Made by a program: the position numbers and the translations under genes. Source: Escherichia phage JS10. From it: a stretch of 64,000 nucleotides of DNA. Positions 14,725 through 29,755 of this stretch are shown here, piece after piece. The notes below the pieces were generated by a model that worked only from the letters and a program-made list of their open reading frames with translations, was not told the origin of the DNA and made no database searches. The stretch lies in sequence record EU863409; one strand, given 5' to 3'. The stretch's first letter is position 1. Each line of letters starts with the position of its first letter.

Positions 14725-15246
14725 TTAATAACCTCGGTCTTGACGAGCAAAGTTCTCGGCATTTTTAAGATAATACAGTTTAAAGATTTCTTCAGCAGTC
14801 AGTCCAAGACCCTGGAACATATTCAGAACAAAGTGCAGAATATCAATCATTTCGAATTTAATTTCGAGCTGGTCTTCAGGAGACAAATCATTAATCAGGG
14901 TTTCGCGACGTTCAGCATGTTGAGCTTTCCAAGGCTTCCATACTGCAGATGCATCTTTTTCACCATTGCTCATACCACCAAGAGAAGTCAGAAGTTCACG
15001 GAATTCGTCATCAATATAATCTTTCTGGTTGCGAAGCCAATCGACAACTTCACCCGCAGTGGCCAAATCATCAGGATGACGATTATATTCAGGCTTATCT
15101 TTAGCTAAACGAACCTGTAATGATTTCTGCATATCAAGCATAACCTGCAGAGGGTCTTTATCTTCGTGAATCAGAGCATTAAAATAAGCTTCTTCAGCTT
15201 TATCGGCACCGGCAATCAGTTGAGAACATTCATTAAAATGAGCCAT
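14725..15246 (-). CDS. 56: dCTP pyrophosphatase (dCTPase)
   Basis: MAHFNECSQL... matches T4 gp56 start; MazG-like; track start 15264 trimmed to ATG at 15244-15246. Confidence 0.85.
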   Translation of the reverse strand: MAHFNECSQLIAGADKAEEAYFNALIHEDKDPLQVMLDMQKSLQVRLAKDKPEYNRHPDDLATAGEVVDWLRNQKDYIDDEFRELLTSLGGMSNGEKDASAVWKPWKAQHAERRETLINDLSPEDQLEIKFEMIDILHFVLNMFQGLGLTAEEIFKLYYLKNAENFARQDRGY

Positions 15247-20500: not shown

Positions 20501-21665
20501 CTAAATCCATCTCTTCTAAATCGTTTTCGATATCAGCTGCGCTTTGAGTGTCGCCACTCAATTTAACTGCAACGTTCTTAGAGACACGAGAGTTAATAAG
20601 GTCGTTCACCGCATCATCGACTTCTTTAATAGAATTAATTGCACCGAGCTTATACTTATTCTCGATTGCTTCACGGAATGGAGCATGTTTAAACAGCGGT
20701 CCCCAGAACTCGACACAATCGGTAGCTTTAGCACGCCATGATTTTTCTTCTTGAACCATTTCACCCGTGGTTTCGTCAAGGAATGCACGATTATACCAAC
20801 CAGCTTTAGGTTTCACGACAAAGCCAATATCAGTAGCCATTTCGAGCAGACCACTAAATGGGTCGATACCACCTTCAAAGTTCACAGTAATTGGGAACGT
20901 TGATTTCTCTTTAACAGTACGAGATTTTTCGGCCTTCAGGGTGAAGTCATAACCAGTGAGCTCGGTACCATCTTTAACCTGACGTTTAGAGATAAAGAAT
21001 ACGGTAGAAGCAGAGTACAGAATACCAGTACCACCACCCATAATCTCTTTAGGATACATTCCACCAATTTCCATAGCCGTATGGTTAATTGCTACACAAG
21101 GAATATCCTTGATAGTCAGATAAGGTGTTACGATACGGAACAGAGATTTCAGAGACTTAGCACGAGTCATATCACCTACAACTTTCTCGTTCAACGCATC
21201 TTCGGTTTCTTTCTTAGAAGCAGTGTTACCGATGGAGTCGATAAAGATAATAACCTTTTCGCCACGAGTAATTTCTTCTAATTGGTTGGTCATGTCAACC
21301 TTCAGTTGTTCGACTGACTGGATTGGTGTATGAACCACACGTTCCAGGTCAACACCCATTGAACGGAAATAAGATTCTGAAGCACCGAACTCAGAGTCAT
21401 AGAACAAGCAAATTGCGTCTGGATATTTCTTCATATATGCCGCAACCATAGTTAATCCAAACAACGTTTTAAAGTGTTTAGACGGTGCAGCAAAGATTGT
21501 CAAACCTGATTGTAAGCCTGCATTCAACGCACCGCCCAATGCAATATTAAGCATAGGAATACGAGTAGGAACTTCGTCACGACCATTAAACAATTTAGAT
21601 TTGGTCAGGTCGGCAGTCATTTTAGAAGTAGAAGCTTTAATCAAACGGGATTTTAAATCAGACAT
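20493..21665 (-). CDS. uvsX: UvsX recombinase (RecA-like)
   Basis: 390 aa; RecA-fold ATPase; T4 UvsX is about 391 aa. Confidence 0.85.
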   Translation of the reverse strand: MSDLKSRLIKASTSKMTADLTKSKLFNGRDEVPTRIPMLNIALGGALNAGLQSGLTIFAAPSKHFKTLFGLTMVAAYMKKYPDAICLFYDSEFGASESYFRSMGVDLERVVHTPIQSVEQLKVDMTNQLEEITRGEKVIIFIDSIGNTASKKETEDALNEKVVGDMTRAKSLKSLFRIVTPYLTIKDIPCVAINHTAMEIGGMYPKEIMGGGTGILYSASTVFFISKRQVKDGTELTGYDFTLKAEKSRTVKEKSTFPITVNFEGGIDPFSGLLEMATDIGFVVKPKAGWYNRAFLDETTGEMVQEEKSWRAKATDCVEFWGPLFKHAPFREAIENKYKLGAINSIKEVDDAVNDLINSRVSKNVAVKLSGDTQSAADIENDLEEMDLDD

Positions 21666-21699
21666 TATATTTTTCCATAGGCATCATTATATTTTTCTC

Positions 21700-21745
21700 A
21701 CGTTTTAAGATAGGGTAATTATATCACTTCACAGTTACAGCATTA
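21700..21745 (-). promoter_or_regulatory. possible middle (MotA-type) promoter of uvsX
   Basis: minus strand AATGCTGTAA box 12 nt upstream of a perfect TATAAT. Confidence 0.3.
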
Positions 21746-21867
21746 CTTAATTCCTCGGTTGATAGCCTTATCGACTATCTTCCGAACTTCTCGTTTCTCG
21801 AGCCACCCTAATAATAGCAAGGCTCCGAAAGAGAATAATAACAAACCTATAAAAAGCAATAGAGGAC

Positions 21868-22761
21868 CTAGCATACTACGTCCTCATAACGTGGCATTTC
21901 GTATTCAGAATGAATATTGGCACCGAAATAAATGAATTCAGCCAGACCAGGATGGAATACTAAACCTGGGTTCTCATGATAAATGATATGTGGTCTTGAT
22001 TTCAGAATTTGATAATATTCAACCTTACTCGGTTTGAATTTAATAATCTCTACATCAGGACGATAGTCTTCGCGCTTAAATGAATCATTCGGGTCGGTGA
22101 TATAAAGACGAGCACCTTCAGCGGCAGCTTGGTCTACAACTCTTTCGAATTGATAGCACTTATCCGAAATACGGAATGGATGGAAAATACCATCAATTTT
22201 AATAGGCGCTAGACCTTCAGAGTAACGCTCAATTACTGCAGGATTAATTACCTTTTGGTCTACAAAAATCTTATCAGAGGATGCACCTCGTGACACCAGG
22301 ACGTCTTTCTGGCATTGATTCAGGACTGTAGTATAAAGTGAACGTTCAACCGAAGCCACATCAATATCAATGAACTCGTCGATATAATAACGAGGAACTT
22401 CAGGGTCCATTGTGATATTAAAGTTGAATTGTACAGTGTGAGCACCATCATAACCGGTGATATCGGTTACCAGTCCTGAGCAATCGTAGTATTCGATTAG
22501 TGAATCGACTACAAACTCATTTTCAGACCAGAAATGTTTACGGGTTTCATAAGCATTTTCTTTATACCAAAGTGGTACGAAATTCAGTTCTGGGAATAAT
22601 TCAATGCATTCTTTGATATCGCTCGAATTTCTAGGATAAGCCAGATAATCACCTGGACGAGCACGATTTAAATGGAGTTGAAAATTACCGTCCTTAAGGA
22701 CGGCATATTCACCTGTTTCGTAACTACGCATACTGAAAATAGGAACGATAAACAAACTCAT
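21868..22761 (-). CDS. hypothetical protein at the T4 beta-glucosyltransferase locus; candidate DNA-sugar transferase
   Basis: 297 aa; sits between uvsX and gene 42 where T4 has bgt, but does not resemble T4 bgt. Confidence 0.5.
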   Translation of the reverse strand: MSLFIVPIFSMRSYETGEYAVLKDGNFQLHLNRARPGDYLAYPRNSSDIKECIELFPELNFVPLWYKENAYETRKHFWSENEFVVDSLIEYYDCSGLVTDITGYDGAHTVQFNFNITMDPEVPRYYIDEFIDIDVASVERSLYTTVLNQCQKDVLVSRGASSDKIFVDQKVINPAVIERYSEGLAPIKIDGIFHPFRISDKCYQFERVVDQAAAEGARLYITDPNDSFKREDYRPDVEIIKFKPSKVEYYQILKSRPHIIYHENPGLVFHPGLAEFIYFGANIHSEYEMPRYEDVVC

Positions 22762-23456
22762 TTCAGGAAACCTCGGACGTAGTCAAAATCACGTTCAAAC
22801 ACGTGTGCACTTACCATGGTGTGAGAATATGTACCTAAACCGACACCACACTGTTCAGCAATAAATGCCATCAGTTTACCCTGCAGATAGAAATCCAGCT
22901 GCATAACAACAGCACAGTTTTGTGAACGCATATGGGTGTGTGCATACAAACGTCCGTCACGAATATAATACGTTACCGAATCGGTGCACGGATATTCTAA
23001 GGATTCGTCAGAATCAAGGAGGGCTTGGTCTTGTTCTTGGAGAATCTGGAACACAACTCTTCGCGAGTTAGCCTTTTCTTTAAGCTCTTTAAGTAGGGCT
23101 GGGAGTTGGGCCACAATTCGAGGTCCATAGAAAGTGTTGAAGTTTGCAGGCAATACGTCACTTTTCGGCTTATCAATGAACTTAGCAACATTAGGATATT
23201 CCTTAAATGCTTCGGCGGCGTCAGTACCACCAGAAATCATAAATTTCCAAAAGGATTCGGCATATTCATAACTAATACGATTGATACGTGGGTCGGTGAA
23301 TTTATAGGTGCTTGCATCCAGTACTTCTACAGAAGCAGAACCAATTTCATAACAACGTCCGATACGAGAATCAACTGCAAACTGTGGAGCTTCCAGGATT
23401 TCTTCGTTCATTTGTTTAAATGCATTTTCAAAACTAACAGCGGTAATGTGTTTCAT
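22758..23456 (-). CDS. 42: dCMP hydroxymethylase (thymidylate-synthase fold)
   Basis: 232 aa; NSRRVVFQ...THMRSQNCAVVMQLDFY...HVFERDF align with T4 gp42 blocks. Confidence 0.8.
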   Translation of the reverse strand: MKHITAVSFENAFKQMNEEILEAPQFAVDSRIGRCYEIGSASVEVLDASTYKFTDPRINRISYEYAESFWKFMISGGTDAAEAFKEYPNVAKFIDKPKSDVLPANFNTFYGPRIVAQLPALLKELKEKANSRRVVFQILQEQDQALLDSDESLEYPCTDSVTYYIRDGRLYAHTHMRSQNCAVVMQLDFYLQGKLMAFIAEQCGVGLGTYSHTMVSAHVFERDFDYVRGFLK

Positions 23457-23989
23457 TTATTCACCTTATTTTCAATATATTCGTTCAGACGTTTTAATTC
23501 TACCATATCAACATTAAGCAAATTATTATGGCCGTCATGATTTAAGATTTTAAACACGTTTTCAAAACATGTTTCGTATTGCCGGATAGTTAGGTTGAAC
23601 TCATCTTTGGTTAATTTAATAAGGTCGTCTTCGAAGTCTTCGTCTAATGGATTACGAGTTAAAATAACCTCGATAACGTTAAATTCGGATTTAAACCCTT
23701 TCCAATCTTCCAGTTCTACATAAGGGTCCATTTCACCACGAAGGAATCCTGAGTAAACAATATTACTTGGATAACCACGGTCAAGGATATAAACGAAATT
23801 AGGGTCTAAAAACTTATACAGAGTTTCAACTAAAGCCTTATCGTTATCGGTTCCTAATGAAATACACTTGCCATTAATCTTTTTAGGAAAATCAATAAGG
23901 CGGTATTTCTTATTGGATAACAGATTTTTAATTAAAGTGGACTTCCCGGAATTATCCGGGCCGTCTATAACAATGATTTTTGGATTCAT
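23453..23989 (-). CDS. P-loop kinase, thymidylate-kinase-like
   Basis: 178 aa; Walker A IVIDGPDNSGKST typical of Tmk/dNK-type kinases. Confidence 0.55.
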   Translation of the reverse strand: MNPKIIVIDGPDNSGKSTLIKNLLSNKKYRLIDFPKKINGKCISLGTDNDKALVETLYKFLDPNFVYILDRGYPSNIVYSGFLRGEMDPYVELEDWKGFKSEFNVIEVILTRNPLDEDFEDDLIKLTKDEFNLTIRQYETCFENVFKILNHDGHNNLLNVDMVELKRLNEYIENKVNK

Positions 23990-24384
23990 GGATGATAGGC
24001 CTTATAACTATCAAGAGTTCCTTCACGAACCATTTCTTTAAAGTGGTCAGGACGGATTGCTCGGTCATCGATGATAAAAGTATAACTCGGCTTGTGTGTA
24101 AGCAAATTGTGATATTTCAATCCAATTTTTTCAAGGTTCTTAACCAATGCAGGAACTACTTCAACCAAGATTCGACCTGGGCCACATGAAGTCATGCCAC
24201 GGGCGGTGAACAATGTAATCTCGTACCCTTCATCATAAAGCTTATTAATCATGGACACCATTTCGGTGTCCGGTTTAAAGTTCTCATAATCACGGTCATG
24301 GTTCCAAATCGTGATTGTGTTATCGATATCAAAACATAAGTGTGGCTTATTTTCTACTCGATGCGACATTAAATTTTCTTCCAT
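23986..24384 (-). CDS. HAD-superfamily phosphatase
   Basis: 132 aa; motif I CFDIDNTIT (DxDxT). Confidence 0.6.
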   Translation of the reverse strand: MEENLMSHRVENKPHLCFDIDNTITIWNHDRDYENFKPDTEMVSMINKLYDEGYEITLFTARGMTSCGPGRILVEVVPALVKNLEKIGLKYHNLLTHKPSYTFIIDDRAIRPDHFKEMVREGTLDSYKAYHP

Positions 24385-26042
24385 TGTTTGTGGAGTTCAG
24401 TAGAACCTGTAGGTTTATATTTTACACCAGTTTCCTGGTCAAGCAAAACCCACTTATCAGGACAACGAGTAATAATTTGGGCCGTAATAGGGTCACGAAC
24501 TTCATCGACAAATTCACCTGTAATAAGCTTACGCTTACGAGGATGCCGCTTCAGCAGCACACTCAGTTGGTACAAACCGTTATAATAAGCACCCAGAGCT
24601 TTCAGAGGGTTATTCTTAAAGTAACCTGCCAGAGCCATCCAAATAACAGCAATCCAGAGCTTGTGCTTAAATGTGCACATAGGGATATCGTCTAAAGGCA
24701 TAACCTTTTCGATATCAACGAATACACGAGTTCCGTTACGAGTTAATCCACCCCATAGAGGGTCTGAGTTAAATTTGTCATAGCCATCGATAGAATAAAG
24801 CACCTTAGCTTCATCATAAATCGCAGGGCCTTTAGAACTATTACCGAAATAACCGCGTGGGTCGATGATTTTAATATCACCTTCGTCCGACAGCATAATA
24901 TTACTGTAGTGCGGGTCACCATGAATAAGTTGGTACGGTTCTTTATGTTCAGACAGAATTTCTAGTGCATGGCGGAGAAGTTTTTCAGGGTCGCCTACTT
25001 TGAAATCGTTAACATGGGTAATGCCTTGTGGAGCAAAGCCTTCAATCAATCCGGCAATAGAAGCATTACGAATAAGGACCTTGTCCAATACTTCTTTCTT
25101 AACATCAGAATACCATTGCTCATCGGACGGGTTATCGATAGTTCCACCGAATGAACGTAATGCACTAATGACCTTATAAACCATGAGGACTTTAGTTTCT
25201 TTGGACATAAACCGGTAGGCATCTGCCATGGTCCGACCAAAGATACGTTCCATTTTAATGAATTCGCCTGGAGAAAAGTCTACAATGCTAGGAACGAATT
25301 CAGAATCAATAGAATTATACCAATTGATTTCTTTAGATTGAATTTCTTTACCTAAATCGTTAGTTGGTACTTTAATAGCCAGATTCTCGGTGAATTCTAA
25401 TTTATTAAATTCACGGTTAATTTCAGATTCTTCATGGGCCTTAGCCAGTTTCAATTTGTCACCGACATCAACTACAAAGTCCAGTTTACGTTCAGTCAAA
25501 TAGACCATTGAATCCAGGTTATCAGCAAGGTCTTCACCGTAATTAGAACGGTCGAAACCTGTCCAATTAGCCACCTGATACAAACCAACTACACCGCCAC
25601 CGGTACCAATTTCACGTAAGTACGGTTCTTCAAATGTAAAACGACAATCGGTTCCATAAGTATAGCAGTAGTCGTTACCCCACTCAACTTTATGACCTTC
25701 AGGAATGATGTCACACCAGTTAAACAAGACATTATGACCAATGATATCTTCGGCAATGCAATCGATAGCATGAGCTGAACCATTAGCAACATCAACGTTA
25801 CGAATAGTGAATTTAGGCTTATCACCAGTAATCATGTTAATGGATTTAATATAGCCTTTAACGAGGTCGTTAAATTTGCTGTGAATAACCAGAATAATTT
25901 CATCTGATTGGTTACTATACAAATCATACAAATGCTTTAATACTGTATGTTGTTTGTAGTTAACCAATACCTTCGGGATTTCGTTAGTAATTGGGTACAA
26001 ACGTGAGCCAAGACCTGCGCCTAAAATAACAACCTTTTTCAT
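24369..26042 (-). CDS. bifunctional sugar-1-phosphate nucleotidyltransferase / APH-fold sugar kinase
   Basis: N-terminus VVILGAGLGSRL (NTP-transferase G-x-G-x-R); C-terminus HGDPHYSNIML...IIDPRGYFG (APH/choline-kinase catalytic loop); start trimmed to ATG 26040-26042 with GAGGAA RBS. Confidence 0.65.
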   Translation of the reverse strand: MKKVVILGAGLGSRLYPITNEIPKVLVNYKQHTVLKHLYDLYSNQSDEIILVIHSKFNDLVKGYIKSINMITGDKPKFTIRNVDVANGSAHAIDCIAEDIIGHNVLFNWCDIIPEGHKVEWGNDYCYTYGTDCRFTFEEPYLREIGTGGGVVGLYQVANWTGFDRSNYGEDLADNLDSMVYLTERKLDFVVDVGDKLKLAKAHEESEINREFNKLEFTENLAIKVPTNDLGKEIQSKEINWYNSIDSEFVPSIVDFSPGEFIKMERIFGRTMADAYRFMSKETKVLMVYKVISALRSFGGTIDNPSDEQWYSDVKKEVLDKVLIRNASIAGLIEGFAPQGITHVNDFKVGDPEKLLRHALEILSEHKEPYQLIHGDPHYSNIMLSDEGDIKIIDPRGYFGNSSKGPAIYDEAKVLYSIDGYDKFNSDPLWGGLTRNGTRVFVDIEKVMPLDDIPMCTFKHKLWIAVIWMALAGYFKNNPLKALGAYYNGLYQLSVLLKRHPRKRKLITGEFVDEVRDPITAQIITRCPDKWVLLDQETGVKYKPTGSTELHKQWKKI

Positions 26043-26102
26043 TATCTGTTCCTCAAGTGAATGTAGGTACATTATACACTATTTTTAATAAATTTCTATT
26101 GC

Positions 26103-26603
26103 TTAAATCTTATCTTTACCGTATTCCATGCACTGTTCTACTGCAGCAGGCACTTTGGACTTAAGCTTGTTGATTTGTTTCTTATAATCACGAGCCTTAT
26201 CGAAGCTCTCGGTTTCAAGCATTTCGTAATAACGGGCCTCGTGGACGGAAATCTGTAGATTGATATGGTTTACACACATAGAATACAGTTTCTGCTTTTT
26301 GTACAAATCATCTTGGCGCTTCATTTCTGCCTGGTGTTTGGCTAGTACCGCTTCACGCTTAGACTCTTGTTCACGTTGGAATTCGATTTCCCTTTGAGCA
26401 TATTTTGCACAGTTATTACCGCATTGATTATTAGCTCGGGTATACACAAGTCCAGAACCAGCACGGAATTTCATTTCGCCGTCGAATTGTTTCTGTTCAG
26501 CTGCGATACGAGCTTTACCAACTTCATCAGCAGAAACTGCATCACCGTATTGGACTGCGCAACCTGATAGGAGCATACTCATTGCGATAATTAACTTTTT
26601 CAT
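26103..26603 (-). CDS. putative lipoprotein
   Basis: 166 aa; signal peptide with lipobox LSGC. Confidence 0.55.
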   Translation of the reverse strand: MKKLIIAMSMLLSGCAVQYGDAVSADEVGKARIAAEQKQFDGEMKFRAGSGLVYTRANNQCGNNCAKYAQREIEFQREQESKREAVLAKHQAEMKRQDDLYKKQKLYSMCVNHINLQISVHEARYYEMLETESFDKARDYKKQINKLKSKVPAAVEQCMEYGKDKI

Positions 26604-26610
26604 AATATCC

Positions 26611-26748
26611 TCAATTAAAACAGTTATACTTAATTTGTGCTATAAGAATAATCCATCCCATGATTAATGTTGGAATCATTGGAGGAATTGCCACTGCCCA
26701 ATAAACAGTAAAGGCGGCCATTATAAGAAATAAAATAATTATCTTCAT
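26611..26748 (-). CDS. small membrane protein (45 aa)
   Basis: MKIIILFLIMAAFTVYWAVAIPP...; ATGA start/stop overlap with next gene; below track cutoff. Confidence 0.4.
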   Translation of the reverse strand: MKIIILFLIMAAFTVYWAVAIPPMIPTLIMGWIILIAQIKYNCFN

Positions 26749-26981
26749 TGTTTAACGATAATGATTTGTGCGTTTGATTTACGTTCAGCGACGATAGCCC
26801 AGATTAAAGCCACTACCCAACCAATCATCGTCCACCCTAACAGGAGATTAAGGAAGAAGATTCCGACATTGCTACGAGTGCCTCGCAGAAGAGCCAGAAT
26901 CCATGGTAAAAAGTAACCAATGAACATAATAACCAGAGAACCGAATCCTAAAACACCAGCACTAACGATTAAAGCTTCCAT
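26745..26981 (-). CDS. membrane protein, Imm-like by position
   Basis: 78 aa, two hydrophobic helices; T4 imm lies between 42 and 43. Confidence 0.45.
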   Translation of the reverse strand: MEALIVSAGVLGFGSLVIMFIGYFLPWILALLRGTRSNVGIFFLNLLLGWTMIGWVVALIWAIVAERKSNAQIIIVKQ

Positions 26982-26998
26982 TATAATTTCCTCATGTA

Positions 26999-27041
26999 GT
27001 TGATAGGAAGAATAATACCACGTTCCATGTGGTATGTAAAC
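26999..27041 (-). promoter_or_regulatory. early-promoter cassette
   Basis: gttgataggaagaataata...gtaaac. Confidence 0.5.
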
Positions 27042-27043
27042 AC

Positions 27044-29755
27044 TTAAAAGTCGAACATGTCAAATAATGTTGCTTTTTTCTCGTAGTCGATTTTAGCAGA
27101 CTCAGTAAAACCAGTCAGTGGTTTGATAAAGGTCTTTTGGAACAGTACGTTGTAGTCCATCCAACGGAGGACTTGGTCACGAATCTGAATCGGAAGTTCA
27201 ATACCTGACGGCCATGCCATACAAGCTTCACCGAACGGGTTGCCTTCTTTAAGTGGCAGTACATATACCTTTTCACCATCAACGATACGAGGCATAGTCA
27301 AATCACCAGCAGAAGCACGCATGTAAGCTAAGCAACCTTTGATGTGGTACGGGCATTTAGAACCAGGGAAACCGCCTTCATTATATTTCTCAATGTTGTT
27401 AGCACTGGATACTGCAGCAATGCTTACATAGTCTAGTTCGTTAAATTCCTTATTAAACTGTTTGAAATATTCTTGCAAAGAAGCCTCGCCTTCTTGAAGC
27501 ATACGACGGATACATTCTTTCAGTGCTTTCTGAACCGCTTTAGGCGTACTTGATTTCTGGGTTTCGAGACCCATGATTTTCAAGTGTGGTTCGGCATAAC
27601 GAGTACCTTCCATGTCCCAAACGTTCAGTGCGTAACGTTTCTTGCCTGTCCAGAATCCACCAAGACCTTTAGAACCAAGTGGAGGACCAGCGATAGCTTC
27701 TCGGTCCATGAACATCAAGTGCTGTTTATTGTTCATGTATTCACACATCTCACGGAAGCCTGCATCAATAGCTGGTTCCATACGTTCACGTGCAAATTTA
27801 TCTAAGAAGTCAACCCAGTGGTTAGTATCACGGAATTTGTCTTCGCCTACTTTATTGATGATTGCATCAGCCTTAACATAAATGGAGTCGGTATCACCAT
27901 AGAGCACGAACTTCTGGTTTTCAGTCTTGCACACGCCATTCAGATATTCGTTAACCTTACGTTCAATCCATTGGAGGGCCATTTGACCAAACAATGTGAT
28001 TGCAGTTGCGTTCCTGAGGTCATAGTAACGGAACCATACGTTACCAAGTGCACCATAAAGGGAGTTGATAAGCAACTTACGGTTAATCTGAGCAGTCATA
28101 CCTGCGACTTCAGTGCGTTCGGCTTTGAACAACATTTCTTTTAAAGAAGATGCTGACAATTTTTTAATCTGAGCTTTGATTTCGTCAGAGAAGTCGAAAC
28201 GATAATCGATATCCAGTGGACTATCAACAGACAGATTAGGATTTTCTAATGCTTCTTTAATTAACTCACCATTACGTTGAGCTGCAAGCATATAACCTTT
28301 ATGTTCTTTACGCTGTAAGAACACCTTCGTGATTTCTGTAGGAATCACACCATCACGGTCTTTATAGTACATCATGCCGTTAGGAGAGCAACTGTAGGTG
28401 TCGCTAGGACGCGGAGCAGTTCCGGCAATATATTCATGTATCGGTGCGTTGGCGAATGTCCCTGCGATGGTCTCTGGGCTTATATTCACTTGACGAATGA
28501 TACTCGGGTACAGAGATGTAAGGTCGAAACTCATTACATATTTGTACGCGTTAGGAATAGGTTCCTTAACGAAAGCACCCGGATAAGGTTGAACCGCATG
28601 CGATTTGGCCTGAGGAATAACTTTACCCTGTTCTTTAAGGCTATTAAAGATAATAGCGTCCCAAGTCTTAATTGGACTGAACACCGACTGAATCTGCATC
28701 TTGGCATAGTAACCCATGTCCAGACTAAGAAGAATGAACTGGCGTTTCATATCAATCTGCACAACACGATATACGTCGATAATGTTATAGGAAATATATC
28801 GTTGGTGGTTCGTCTCACGTAACTTGGAGATAGGACCATCATATTTCAACTTACCTACTTTCAATTCATATTCAGAAACATAATCCAGAGAATAAGAAGG
28901 CTGGTTGGTAAAGCTGAATTTTTTATAAAGGTCGATATAATCCAGAACAGAAATGCCGAACAGTGTAATAATTTCACGAACACCGTACATATTCTCGATA
29001 ACTTTAACACGAGTCTTACGATGTGGGCTTAATCGCTTAGCAGTGTTCTCACCAAACAGATTTTTCAGACGGTTATAAACGTATGGCACGTCAAATGATT
29101 CAACGTTCCATCCAGTCAAAATCACAGGAGTTTTCTGTTGCCAGAAATTCAGATACTCAAGCATCATTTCTTCTTCAGAATTAAACGGAAGATAAACGAT
29201 TTTGTCAATGATTTCTTGTGGAACTTCGTCACCACCTTCGTCTTGGAGTTTCTCAGCGATTTTAATCGACCACTCTTCGACCGTACCATAAGGTGAAACT
29301 AAAAGGTCAAATACATAGAATTTATCATCAATCGAGTCGTAGTGAGTAATGGCATCGATAGGATGTTTAGCCTGGGCAGGTTCAGGGAATCCATCAGGAG
29401 ATGTTACCTCGATGTCGAAGTTAGCAATACGAATCTTGGAAGAATCATACTTGATTTCTTTACGATAGGTATCAGACAAATAGGCTAATTTATAGTCGTC
29501 CATACCAAGGGCTTCGAGACCCATATCGTCCATGCGCTTCATCCACTGAGAAGCATCGCGCATTGAATCGAATTCTTTCTTAACACAGCCCTTACCGTAG
29601 ATGTCAATATATTTTACGGCTTGCTCTGGGTTGGCATGCATAAACATTGTAGGCTTGTAAGGAACTTCACGACTACGTTCTTTACCATTTTTATCGATGT
29701 AACGTTCGAGAATATTATCACCGATTTGTTCGACTGTCAAATAGAATTCTTGCAT
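27044..29755 (-). CDS. 43: DNA polymerase (family B)
   Basis: starts MQEFYLTVEQIGDN as T4 gp43; YGDTDS motif; track start 29815 trimmed to ATG 29753-29755. Confidence 0.9.
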   Translation of the reverse strand: MQEFYLTVEQIGDNILERYIDKNGKERSREVPYKPTMFMHANPEQAVKYIDIYGKGCVKKEFDSMRDASQWMKRMDDMGLEALGMDDYKLAYLSDTYRKEIKYDSSKIRIANFDIEVTSPDGFPEPAQAKHPIDAITHYDSIDDKFYVFDLLVSPYGTVEEWSIKIAEKLQDEGGDEVPQEIIDKIVYLPFNSEEEMMLEYLNFWQQKTPVILTGWNVESFDVPYVYNRLKNLFGENTAKRLSPHRKTRVKVIENMYGVREIITLFGISVLDYIDLYKKFSFTNQPSYSLDYVSEYELKVGKLKYDGPISKLRETNHQRYISYNIIDVYRVVQIDMKRQFILLSLDMGYYAKMQIQSVFSPIKTWDAIIFNSLKEQGKVIPQAKSHAVQPYPGAFVKEPIPNAYKYVMSFDLTSLYPSIIRQVNISPETIAGTFANAPIHEYIAGTAPRPSDTYSCSPNGMMYYKDRDGVIPTEITKVFLQRKEHKGYMLAAQRNGELIKEALENPNLSVDSPLDIDYRFDFSDEIKAQIKKLSASSLKEMLFKAERTEVAGMTAQINRKLLINSLYGALGNVWFRYYDLRNATAITLFGQMALQWIERKVNEYLNGVCKTENQKFVLYGDTDSIYVKADAIINKVGEDKFRDTNHWVDFLDKFARERMEPAIDAGFREMCEYMNNKQHLMFMDREAIAGPPLGSKGLGGFWTGKKRYALNVWDMEGTRYAEPHLKIMGLETQKSSTPKAVQKALKECIRRMLQEGEASLQEYFKQFNKEFNELDYVSIAAVSSANNIEKYNEGGFPGSKCPYHIKGCLAYMRASAGDLTMPRIVDGEKVYVLPLKEGNPFGEACMAWPSGIELPIQIRDQVLRWMDYNVLFQKTFIKPLTGFTESAKIDYEKKATLFDMFDF

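Follow-up and report, generated by a model that had tools for sequence, protein, structure and literature searches.

What does the small open reading frame at positions 23986-24384 (minus strand) encode, and on which substrate does its product act? The frame is located in the 64,000-nt window, which denotes the whole stretch of DNA analyzed in this study. Many T4-like phages owe protection against restriction enzymes and CRISPR to DNA hypermodification, which also exposes them to type IV systems. The original prediction took the CFDIDNTIT segment of this frame as HAD motif I and proposed a small phosphatase inside a DNA-modification cluster. The enzyme was suggested to release free sugar from a host sugar phosphate, such as arabinose-5-phosphate of the Kdo pathway, for the downstream kinase, or to dephosphorylate a nucleotide intermediate.

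The ORF is real. In the ORF list it appears in its maximal form, with 132 aa from an ATG. The true start is probably M6 (ATG 24367-24369), because this codon overlaps with the upstream stop in a TAATG, aligns to M1 of the HY126 and RB69 homologs, and gives the 127-aa length annotated in phage dhabil. The probable coding sequence therefore spans 23986-24369 (minus strand) and encodes 127 aa. Residues 1-9 are not conserved in the alignment and disordered with low confidence in the AlphaFold2 model, in which no other disordered segment is found.

An alignment of 31 homologs with identities between 99% and 37% showed four HAD motifs, all on the minus strand. CFDIDNTIT constitutes residues 17-25 (24310-24336). 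Within it, F18 precedes D19, so that the DxDx(T/V) signature follows a hydrophobic strand as is typical for the superfamily. Motif I, D19-I-D21-N-T23 (24316-24330), provides the nucleophile Asp and the general acid/base Asp. It is followed in the correct order by T60 of motif II (24205-24207, in LFTARG), K98 of motif III (24091-24093, in THKP), and the Mg2+-binding acidic pair D106-D107 of motif IV (24064-24069, in IIDDR). D19, D21, K98, D106 and D107 are invariant among the 31 homologs. Conservation is at least 90% for both T23 and T60, the latter being replaced by Ser in some of them. Further invariant residues are Y33, N47, Y50, R62 and H92, and the window phosphatase has conserved R31, R62, K90 and H92. 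The bare hDxDx[TV] pattern is not rare in the window (three occurrences among the 21,810 residues contained in ORF segments of at least 100 aa), and therefore motif I alone is weak evidence. Together with homology and fold, the four ordered motifs bear out the assignment of CFDIDNTIT to HAD motif I. The original prediction had named the disappearance of the DxD pair from orthologs as its refutation; this was not seen.

A Pfam search with the phosphatase protein at E values up to 0.1 matched no family, SIS included, and the family assignment was therefore drawn from PHROGs, PDB and NCBIfam. The protein matches PHROG 1238 with an E value of 7.6e-42, and its best matches among PDB sequences are 9iqw_A (E 5e-54) and 1xpj_A (E 4.5e-12). 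An AlphaFold2 model built from the 31-homolog alignment has a mean pLDDT of 85.7 and displays alternating strands and helices. According to this model and Foldseek, they form a Rossmann-like alpha/beta HAD core. The top Foldseek match in PDB is again 9iqw (E 2e-16, TM 0.82). It is followed by 1xpj, the 3'-phosphatase of T4 Pnk, HisB-N and GmhB, which are small capless HAD phosphatases, and every significant PDB match of the model is a HAD phosphatase. The protein is thus a genuine, capless (C0) member of the HAD superfamily.

The nearest relatives outside phages are the EcbF/BcbF proteins of TIGR01689 (E 1.3e-14) and Vibrio cholerae 1xpj (E 4.5e-12, TM 0.65). They share the capless HAD architecture and a length of roughly 125 aa, but differ by an identity of only about 28%, and their own substrates are uncharacterised. 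The phosphatase scored 54.3 bits against TIGR01689 (capsule biosynthesis phosphatase), below the NCBIfam cut-off of 162, and 22.4 bits against GmhB/HAD-IIIA (TIGR01662), below the cut-off of 44.6. The label 'capsule biosynthesis protein' arises from the sub-threshold resemblance to TIGR01689 and was rejected on account of that score. The RefSeq and PHROG 1238 label 'phosphoheptose isomerase' (GmhA) was rejected as well; it is a misnomer, since the SIS domain is absent, the fold is HAD and the NCBIfam matches are sub-threshold. Repair of such annotations, including the public label 'hypothetical', is the practical value of the locus.

The 4.4 kb around the phosphatase gene share 98.6% nucleotide identity with Escherichia phage JS98 (Dhakavirus, Tevenvirinae), and T4-type replication genes are found in the flanks (gp41, gp40, uvsX, imm, gp43, regA, and gp62/44). 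The phosphatase gene corresponds to JS98 gp041, whose annotation reads 'phosphoheptose isomerase' with a note of similarity to RB69 orf051c. It belongs to a group of five minus-strand genes arranged head to tail, in which all junctions overlap, one by TAATG and then three by ATGA. This operon, together with the HAD matches, places a small phosphatase inside a DNA-modification cluster as originally proposed. A tblastn match to RB69 gp51 at 14932-15153 (E 0.006) was dismissed as chance, as it lies inside the gp56 dCTPase gene.

Upstream of the phosphatase lies a gene for an AfhE-like fusion protein (24369-26072 as the long ORF, minus strand), with an N-terminal sugar-1-phosphate nucleotidyltransferase and a C-terminal APH-fold kinase according to Pfam (NTP_transferase at residues 13-110, APH at 356-427). 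It is 43% identical over the full length to XAN60479 of phage HY126, the AfhE equivalent. Its stop codon (24369-24371) overlaps with the probable phosphatase start (24367-24369) in the TAATG junction at 24367-24371 (minus strand), through which the phosphatase gene is translationally coupled to the AfhE-like gene. The true coding sequence of the latter is probably 24369-26042, because the homologous start at 26042 (MKKVVILGAG) is preceded by a GAGGA Shine-Dalgarno sequence at a distance of 8 nt, while the ATG at 26072 sits within TATAATG; the start at 26042 is also used in the JS98 annotation. The TATAATG at the long-ORF start may contain a -10 box (26071-26076). The probable AfhE start is preceded by both TATAAT and GAGGA. 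A scan for sigma-70 promoters and terminators over 21500-27100 gave 18 sites against 18.9 expected in shuffled sequence, that is, no excess.

Three further genes follow the phosphatase on the minus strand. The first, at 23453-23989, encodes a Tmk-like P-loop nucleotide kinase resembling RB69 gp45 (38% identity; PHROG 761, E 1.5e-39), and its start overlaps with the phosphatase stop in an ATGA. The second, at 22758-23456, encodes a thymidylate-synthase homolog (Pfam Thymidylat_synt) with 80% identity to RB69 gp48, which was experimentally shown to make 5hodCMP (PMC13326640). It is a predicted 5-hydroxy-dCMP synthase and not a hydroxymethylase. On the basis of this 80% identity, arabinosyl-5-hydroxycytosine is the predicted modified base, and not arabinosyl-hydroxymethylcytosine; in the literature, a chemical analysis of Dhakavirus DNA was not found. 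The third gene, at 21868-22761, encodes the predicted DNA arabinosyltransferase 1 (RB69 gp46:47-like; 65-70% identity to RB69 gp46/gp47; PHROG 3891), a role taken from PMC13326640.

Is this association kept in other phages? By tblastn, 386 phage records were found to contain the phosphatase; most of them are Straboviridae that infect enterobacteria and Acinetobacter. We examined 80 loci from IMG/VR, 28 of them with a HAD protein at least 51% identical and 52 of marine origin with about 40% identity. Each of the 28 close loci encodes, at a distance of no more than 8 kb, the two AfhE domains, arabinosyltransferase 1, the Tmk-like kinase and the 5hoC synthase; in 27 of them, the gene immediately upstream of the phosphatase is that of AfhE. 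Co-occurrence with the fusion enzyme, which had been put forward as a check of the original prediction, was thus observed. Around the 52 marine homologs, tblastn with the arabinosylation proteins returned no matches, and these homologs belong to other sugar pathways.

The closest characterized relative of the window phosphatase is AfhF of phage HY126 (XAN60478, 128 aa), with 62% identity over 125 aa (E 3e-64). The structure that ranks first both by sequence and by fold, 9iqw, is titled 'phage HY126 encoded D-arabinose 1,5-diphosphate phosphatase AfhF'. The two proteins have size, predicted fold, HAD motifs and the other invariant residues in common, and both genes lie immediately downstream of AfhE in a cluster between uvsX and DNA polymerase, although HY126 is a Mosigvirus and the window phage a Dhakavirus. 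The gene is orthologous to afhF. We consider it, with a probability of about 85%, to be the Dhakavirus AfhF ortholog acting as the phosphatase within the phage UDP-D-arabinofuranose pathway.

The function of the family has been described for related phages. In the account of He et al. (Nat Chem Biol 2026) as cited in PMC13326640, HY126 AfhE phosphorylates Araf5P to Araf1,5P, AfhF is a Mg2+-dependent phosphatase whose product is Araf1P, and AfhE afterwards forms UDP-arabinose. Lee et al. (NAR 2026, PMC13326640) equated RB69 gp51 and Acinetobacter phage DLP3 gp81 with AfhF. They reported arabinosylated 5-hydroxycytosine, not hydroxymethylcytosine, in RB69 and DLP3 DNA, described the thymidylate-synthase homolog as a flavin-dependent 5hodCMP synthase, and named the Dhakaviruses among the genera carrying the syntenic cluster. 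For the window phosphatase, substrate and reaction order would follow this literature on the HY126 ortholog, and substrate specificity is likely conserved at 62% identity. By this analogy, the actual chemistry is most likely the conversion of arabinose-1,5-bisphosphate to arabinose-1-phosphate.

The pathway would then proceed in five steps. D-arabinose-5-phosphate would be supplied by host KdsD/GutQ to a phage without an isomerase of its own, and the kinase domain of the AfhE-like protein would phosphorylate C1 to give arabinofuranose-1,5-bisphosphate. The phosphatase would remove the 5-phosphate and leave arabinofuranose-1-phosphate; in this step Asp19 would attack, Asp21 would serve as acid/base, Asp106/Asp107 would hold Mg2+, and Thr60/Lys98 would stabilise the phosphoryl group. 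The nucleotidyltransferase domain of AfhE would convert arabinofuranose-1-phosphate and UTP to UDP-arabinofuranose. The glycosyltransferase of the cluster would finally attach arabinose to 5-hydroxycytosine in phage DNA.

The original prediction had the order of these reactions otherwise, with the phosphatase turning host arabinose-5-phosphate into free D-arabinose, which the kinase domain of the fusion protein would phosphorylate at C1 before nucleotidyl transfer. This order agrees with Table 1 of PMC13326640 for RB69 gp51/DLP3 gp81, where the phosphatase 'dephosphorylates Araf5p to Ara' and the kinase domain 'Phosphorylates Ara to Araf1p'. It also agrees with the AfhE-like domains, which resemble a MurU-type transferase and an APH/glucosamine-kinase-type kinase as in AmgK/MurU-like salvage from free sugar. 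However, the text of the same paper, with reference to biochemistry on HY126, makes AfhE an arabinose-5-phosphate kinase and lets AfhF act on the 1,5-bisphosphate, and both schemes therefore coexist in print. The structure 9iqw is named for a 1,5-diphosphate phosphatase activity. Furthermore, release of a diffusible pentose would waste phosphate and open the intermediate to host catabolism, and distant relatives of the phosphatase hold the GmhB position in kinase/phosphatase/transferase modules. We therefore regard release of free arabinose as improbable. What stands of the earlier proposal is a phosphatase of the sugar branch beside a kinase fusion; its supply of free sugar from arabinose-5-phosphate to the kinase probably does not hold, given the HY126 AfhF literature and the title of 9iqw.

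Dephosphorylation of the bisphosphate would resemble the ADP-heptose synthesis pathway of GmhB (D-glycero-D-manno-heptose-1,7-bisphosphate 7-phosphatase) and HldE, where a bifunctional kinase/nucleotidyltransferase cooperates with a small capless HAD enzyme that strips the distal phosphate before the sugar-1-phosphate is nucleotidylated. GmhB structures are among the Foldseek matches of the phosphatase model, but their identity to it is just 11-17%. The substrate is a heptose for GmhB and a pentose for AfhF, and the domains of the partner enzyme differ too, with NTP_transferase and APH in AfhE versus PfkB and cytidylyltransferase in HldE.

A profile search against 1.84 billion representative proteins gave 4,320 clusters at E values up to 1e-3 and only 5 at E values up to 1e-30, which makes AfhF proper a tight clade of phage proteins within a large family. 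At 50% identity the family numbers more than 4,000 clusters, and it is not covered by any Pfam model. Its members are found near or fused to genes of other sugar pathways. In Synechococcus phage S-CAM3, the homolog with about 40% identity (L089, 4355-6415) lies between genes for a PfkB sugar kinase and a cytidylyltransferase-like (nucleotidyltransferase-related) protein, beside an ADP-heptose-6-epimerase-like gene. A marine viral contig (L035, 6665-10573), also with a homolog of about 40% identity, contains a cytidylyltransferase-like gene, PfkB, HAD and an epimerase. Both loci look like a split HldE/HldD-type heptose module with a member of the AfhF family in place of GmhB. A tryptophan-halogenase-like gene and 2OG-Fe(II) oxygenases are further neighbors on the L035 contig. 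The HAD gene lies with a GHMP kinase and an NTP_transferase in a Pelagibacter locus (L092), and with NeuB and a heptosyltransferase in a Prochlorococcus genome; other members are fused to cytidylyltransferase, NeuB or GT2 domains. The recurring position of the family is that of GmhB, between an anomeric kinase and a nucleotidyltransferase. This position is consistent with the bisphosphate mechanism and disfavors a nucleotide substrate.

A nucleotide substrate was the other proposal of the original prediction. The phosphatase would in that case be a nucleotidase acting on dCMP, 5-hydroxy-dCMP or a similar deoxynucleotide, with a role in the nucleotide pool. Its gene adjoins those of the Tmk-like kinase and the 5hodCMP synthase, and RB69 gp51 was matched by Foldseek against AFDB to a putative 5'(3')-deoxyribonucleotidase (PMC13326640). 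The protein also resembles the Pnk phosphatase domain weakly, both in sequence (polynucleotide-kinase PHROG 415, E 3e-6) and in Foldseek. The 3'-phosphatase domain of T4 Pnkp is likewise a HAD core without a cap and has DxDxT and, as motif IV, DD, but differs from the window phosphatase by 15-21% identity, a nucleic-acid substrate and a P-loop kinase fusion. JS98 possesses its own pseT elsewhere in the genome. However, the Pnk and nucleotidase matches are remote, with 14-21% identity against 62% to AfhF, and in all but one of the 28 close loci the phosphatase gene is coupled in translation to AfhE. In the cases examined, members of the wider family are fused or adjacent to sugar-pathway enzymes and never to nucleotide enzymes, and dephosphorylation of 5hodCMP would counteract the pathway. 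A nucleotidase is thus very unlikely, and the proposed dephosphorylation of a nucleotide intermediate is probably wrong, as the reported substrate of HY126 AfhF is arabinose-1,5-bisphosphate and no nucleotide. Least probable of all is a mutase of the beta-phosphoglucomutase type, which would turn arabinose-5-phosphate into arabinose-1-phosphate through a bound bisphosphate without net hydrolysis: such enzymes exist in the HAD superfamily, and the natural intermediate would here be arabinose-1,5-bisphosphate, but the bisphosphate is held and turned around in HAD mutases by a large cap domain that they require, where the window protein is a 127-aa capless core, the neighboring dedicated kinase domain would be redundant, and the ortholog is described as a phosphatase (9iqw title; PMC13326640).

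With the window phosphatase taken as an AfhF-type bisphosphate phosphatase, the source of arabinose-5-phosphate can be considered. The cluster differs from the HY126/RB69 type in being without the arabinose-5-phosphate isomerase, the U32-peptidase-like gene, gp49 and the second arabinosyltransferase. No homolog of RB69 gp55 (arabinose-5-phosphate isomerase), gp50 (U32-like), gp49 or gp3 (second arabinosyltransferase) was found in the 64,000-nt window, nor of any of this set in the complete JS98 genome (170,523 bp). The isomerase is carried by RB69, HY126 and DLP3, and is absent in 10 of the 28 close loci. From the missing phage isomerase we infer that JS98-type phages would depend on host KdsD/GutQ for arabinose-5-phosphate, and they probably add a single arabinose (mono-arabinosylation). 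The absence of the isomerase from the window and the JS98 genome strengthens the part of the original prediction in which the sugar enters as arabinose-5-phosphate from the Kdo pathway of the host. It lends no support to an action of the phosphatase on arabinose-5-phosphate itself.

The arrangement of the cluster has also changed. The Tmk-like kinase gene of the window is relocated directly downstream of the phosphatase, unlike in the HY126/RB69-type cluster; in RB69-type phages it is found at the far end. The same downstream location was observed in all ten lineages lacking the isomerase, and also in one that keeps it (L023).

These features suggest a joint reading, which we consider about evenly poised between right and wrong. 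Under it, the five-gene Dhakavirus module, having no isomerase, U32-like enzyme or second transferase, would be wholly dependent on KdsD/GutQ and would make mono-arabinosyl-5-hydroxycytosine only, and AfhF would belong to a large Pfam-less family of capless sugar-bisphosphate phosphatases that replace GmhB in nucleotide-sugar modules of cyanophages and marine bacteria. If this is true, phage DNA modification would directly compete with LPS synthesis. The literature already contains the enzyme family, its structure and the pathway, and it mentions the Dhakavirus cluster; as the pathway was solved in 2025-2026, the locus adds little new to it. The remaining interest lies in the minimal, host-dependent pathway of JS98-type phages and in the large unannotated family around AfhF. 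Therapeutic coliphages of the JS98 type carry this minimal version and should depend on host arabinose-5-phosphate.

Two minor observations concern the surroundings of these genes. The ORF at 26103-26603 (minus strand, 166 aa; JS98 orf43) occupies the slot of the arabinose-5-phosphate isomerase in RB69/HY126; it has a lipoprotein-type signal at its N-terminus, MKKLIIAMSMLLSGC, and gave nothing significant in Pfam. A 167-kb sequence filed as a bacterial bin (L090, CAVJPU010000002.1) encodes a 59%-identical phosphatase and, being as large as a T4-like phage genome, is probably a mis-binned phage.
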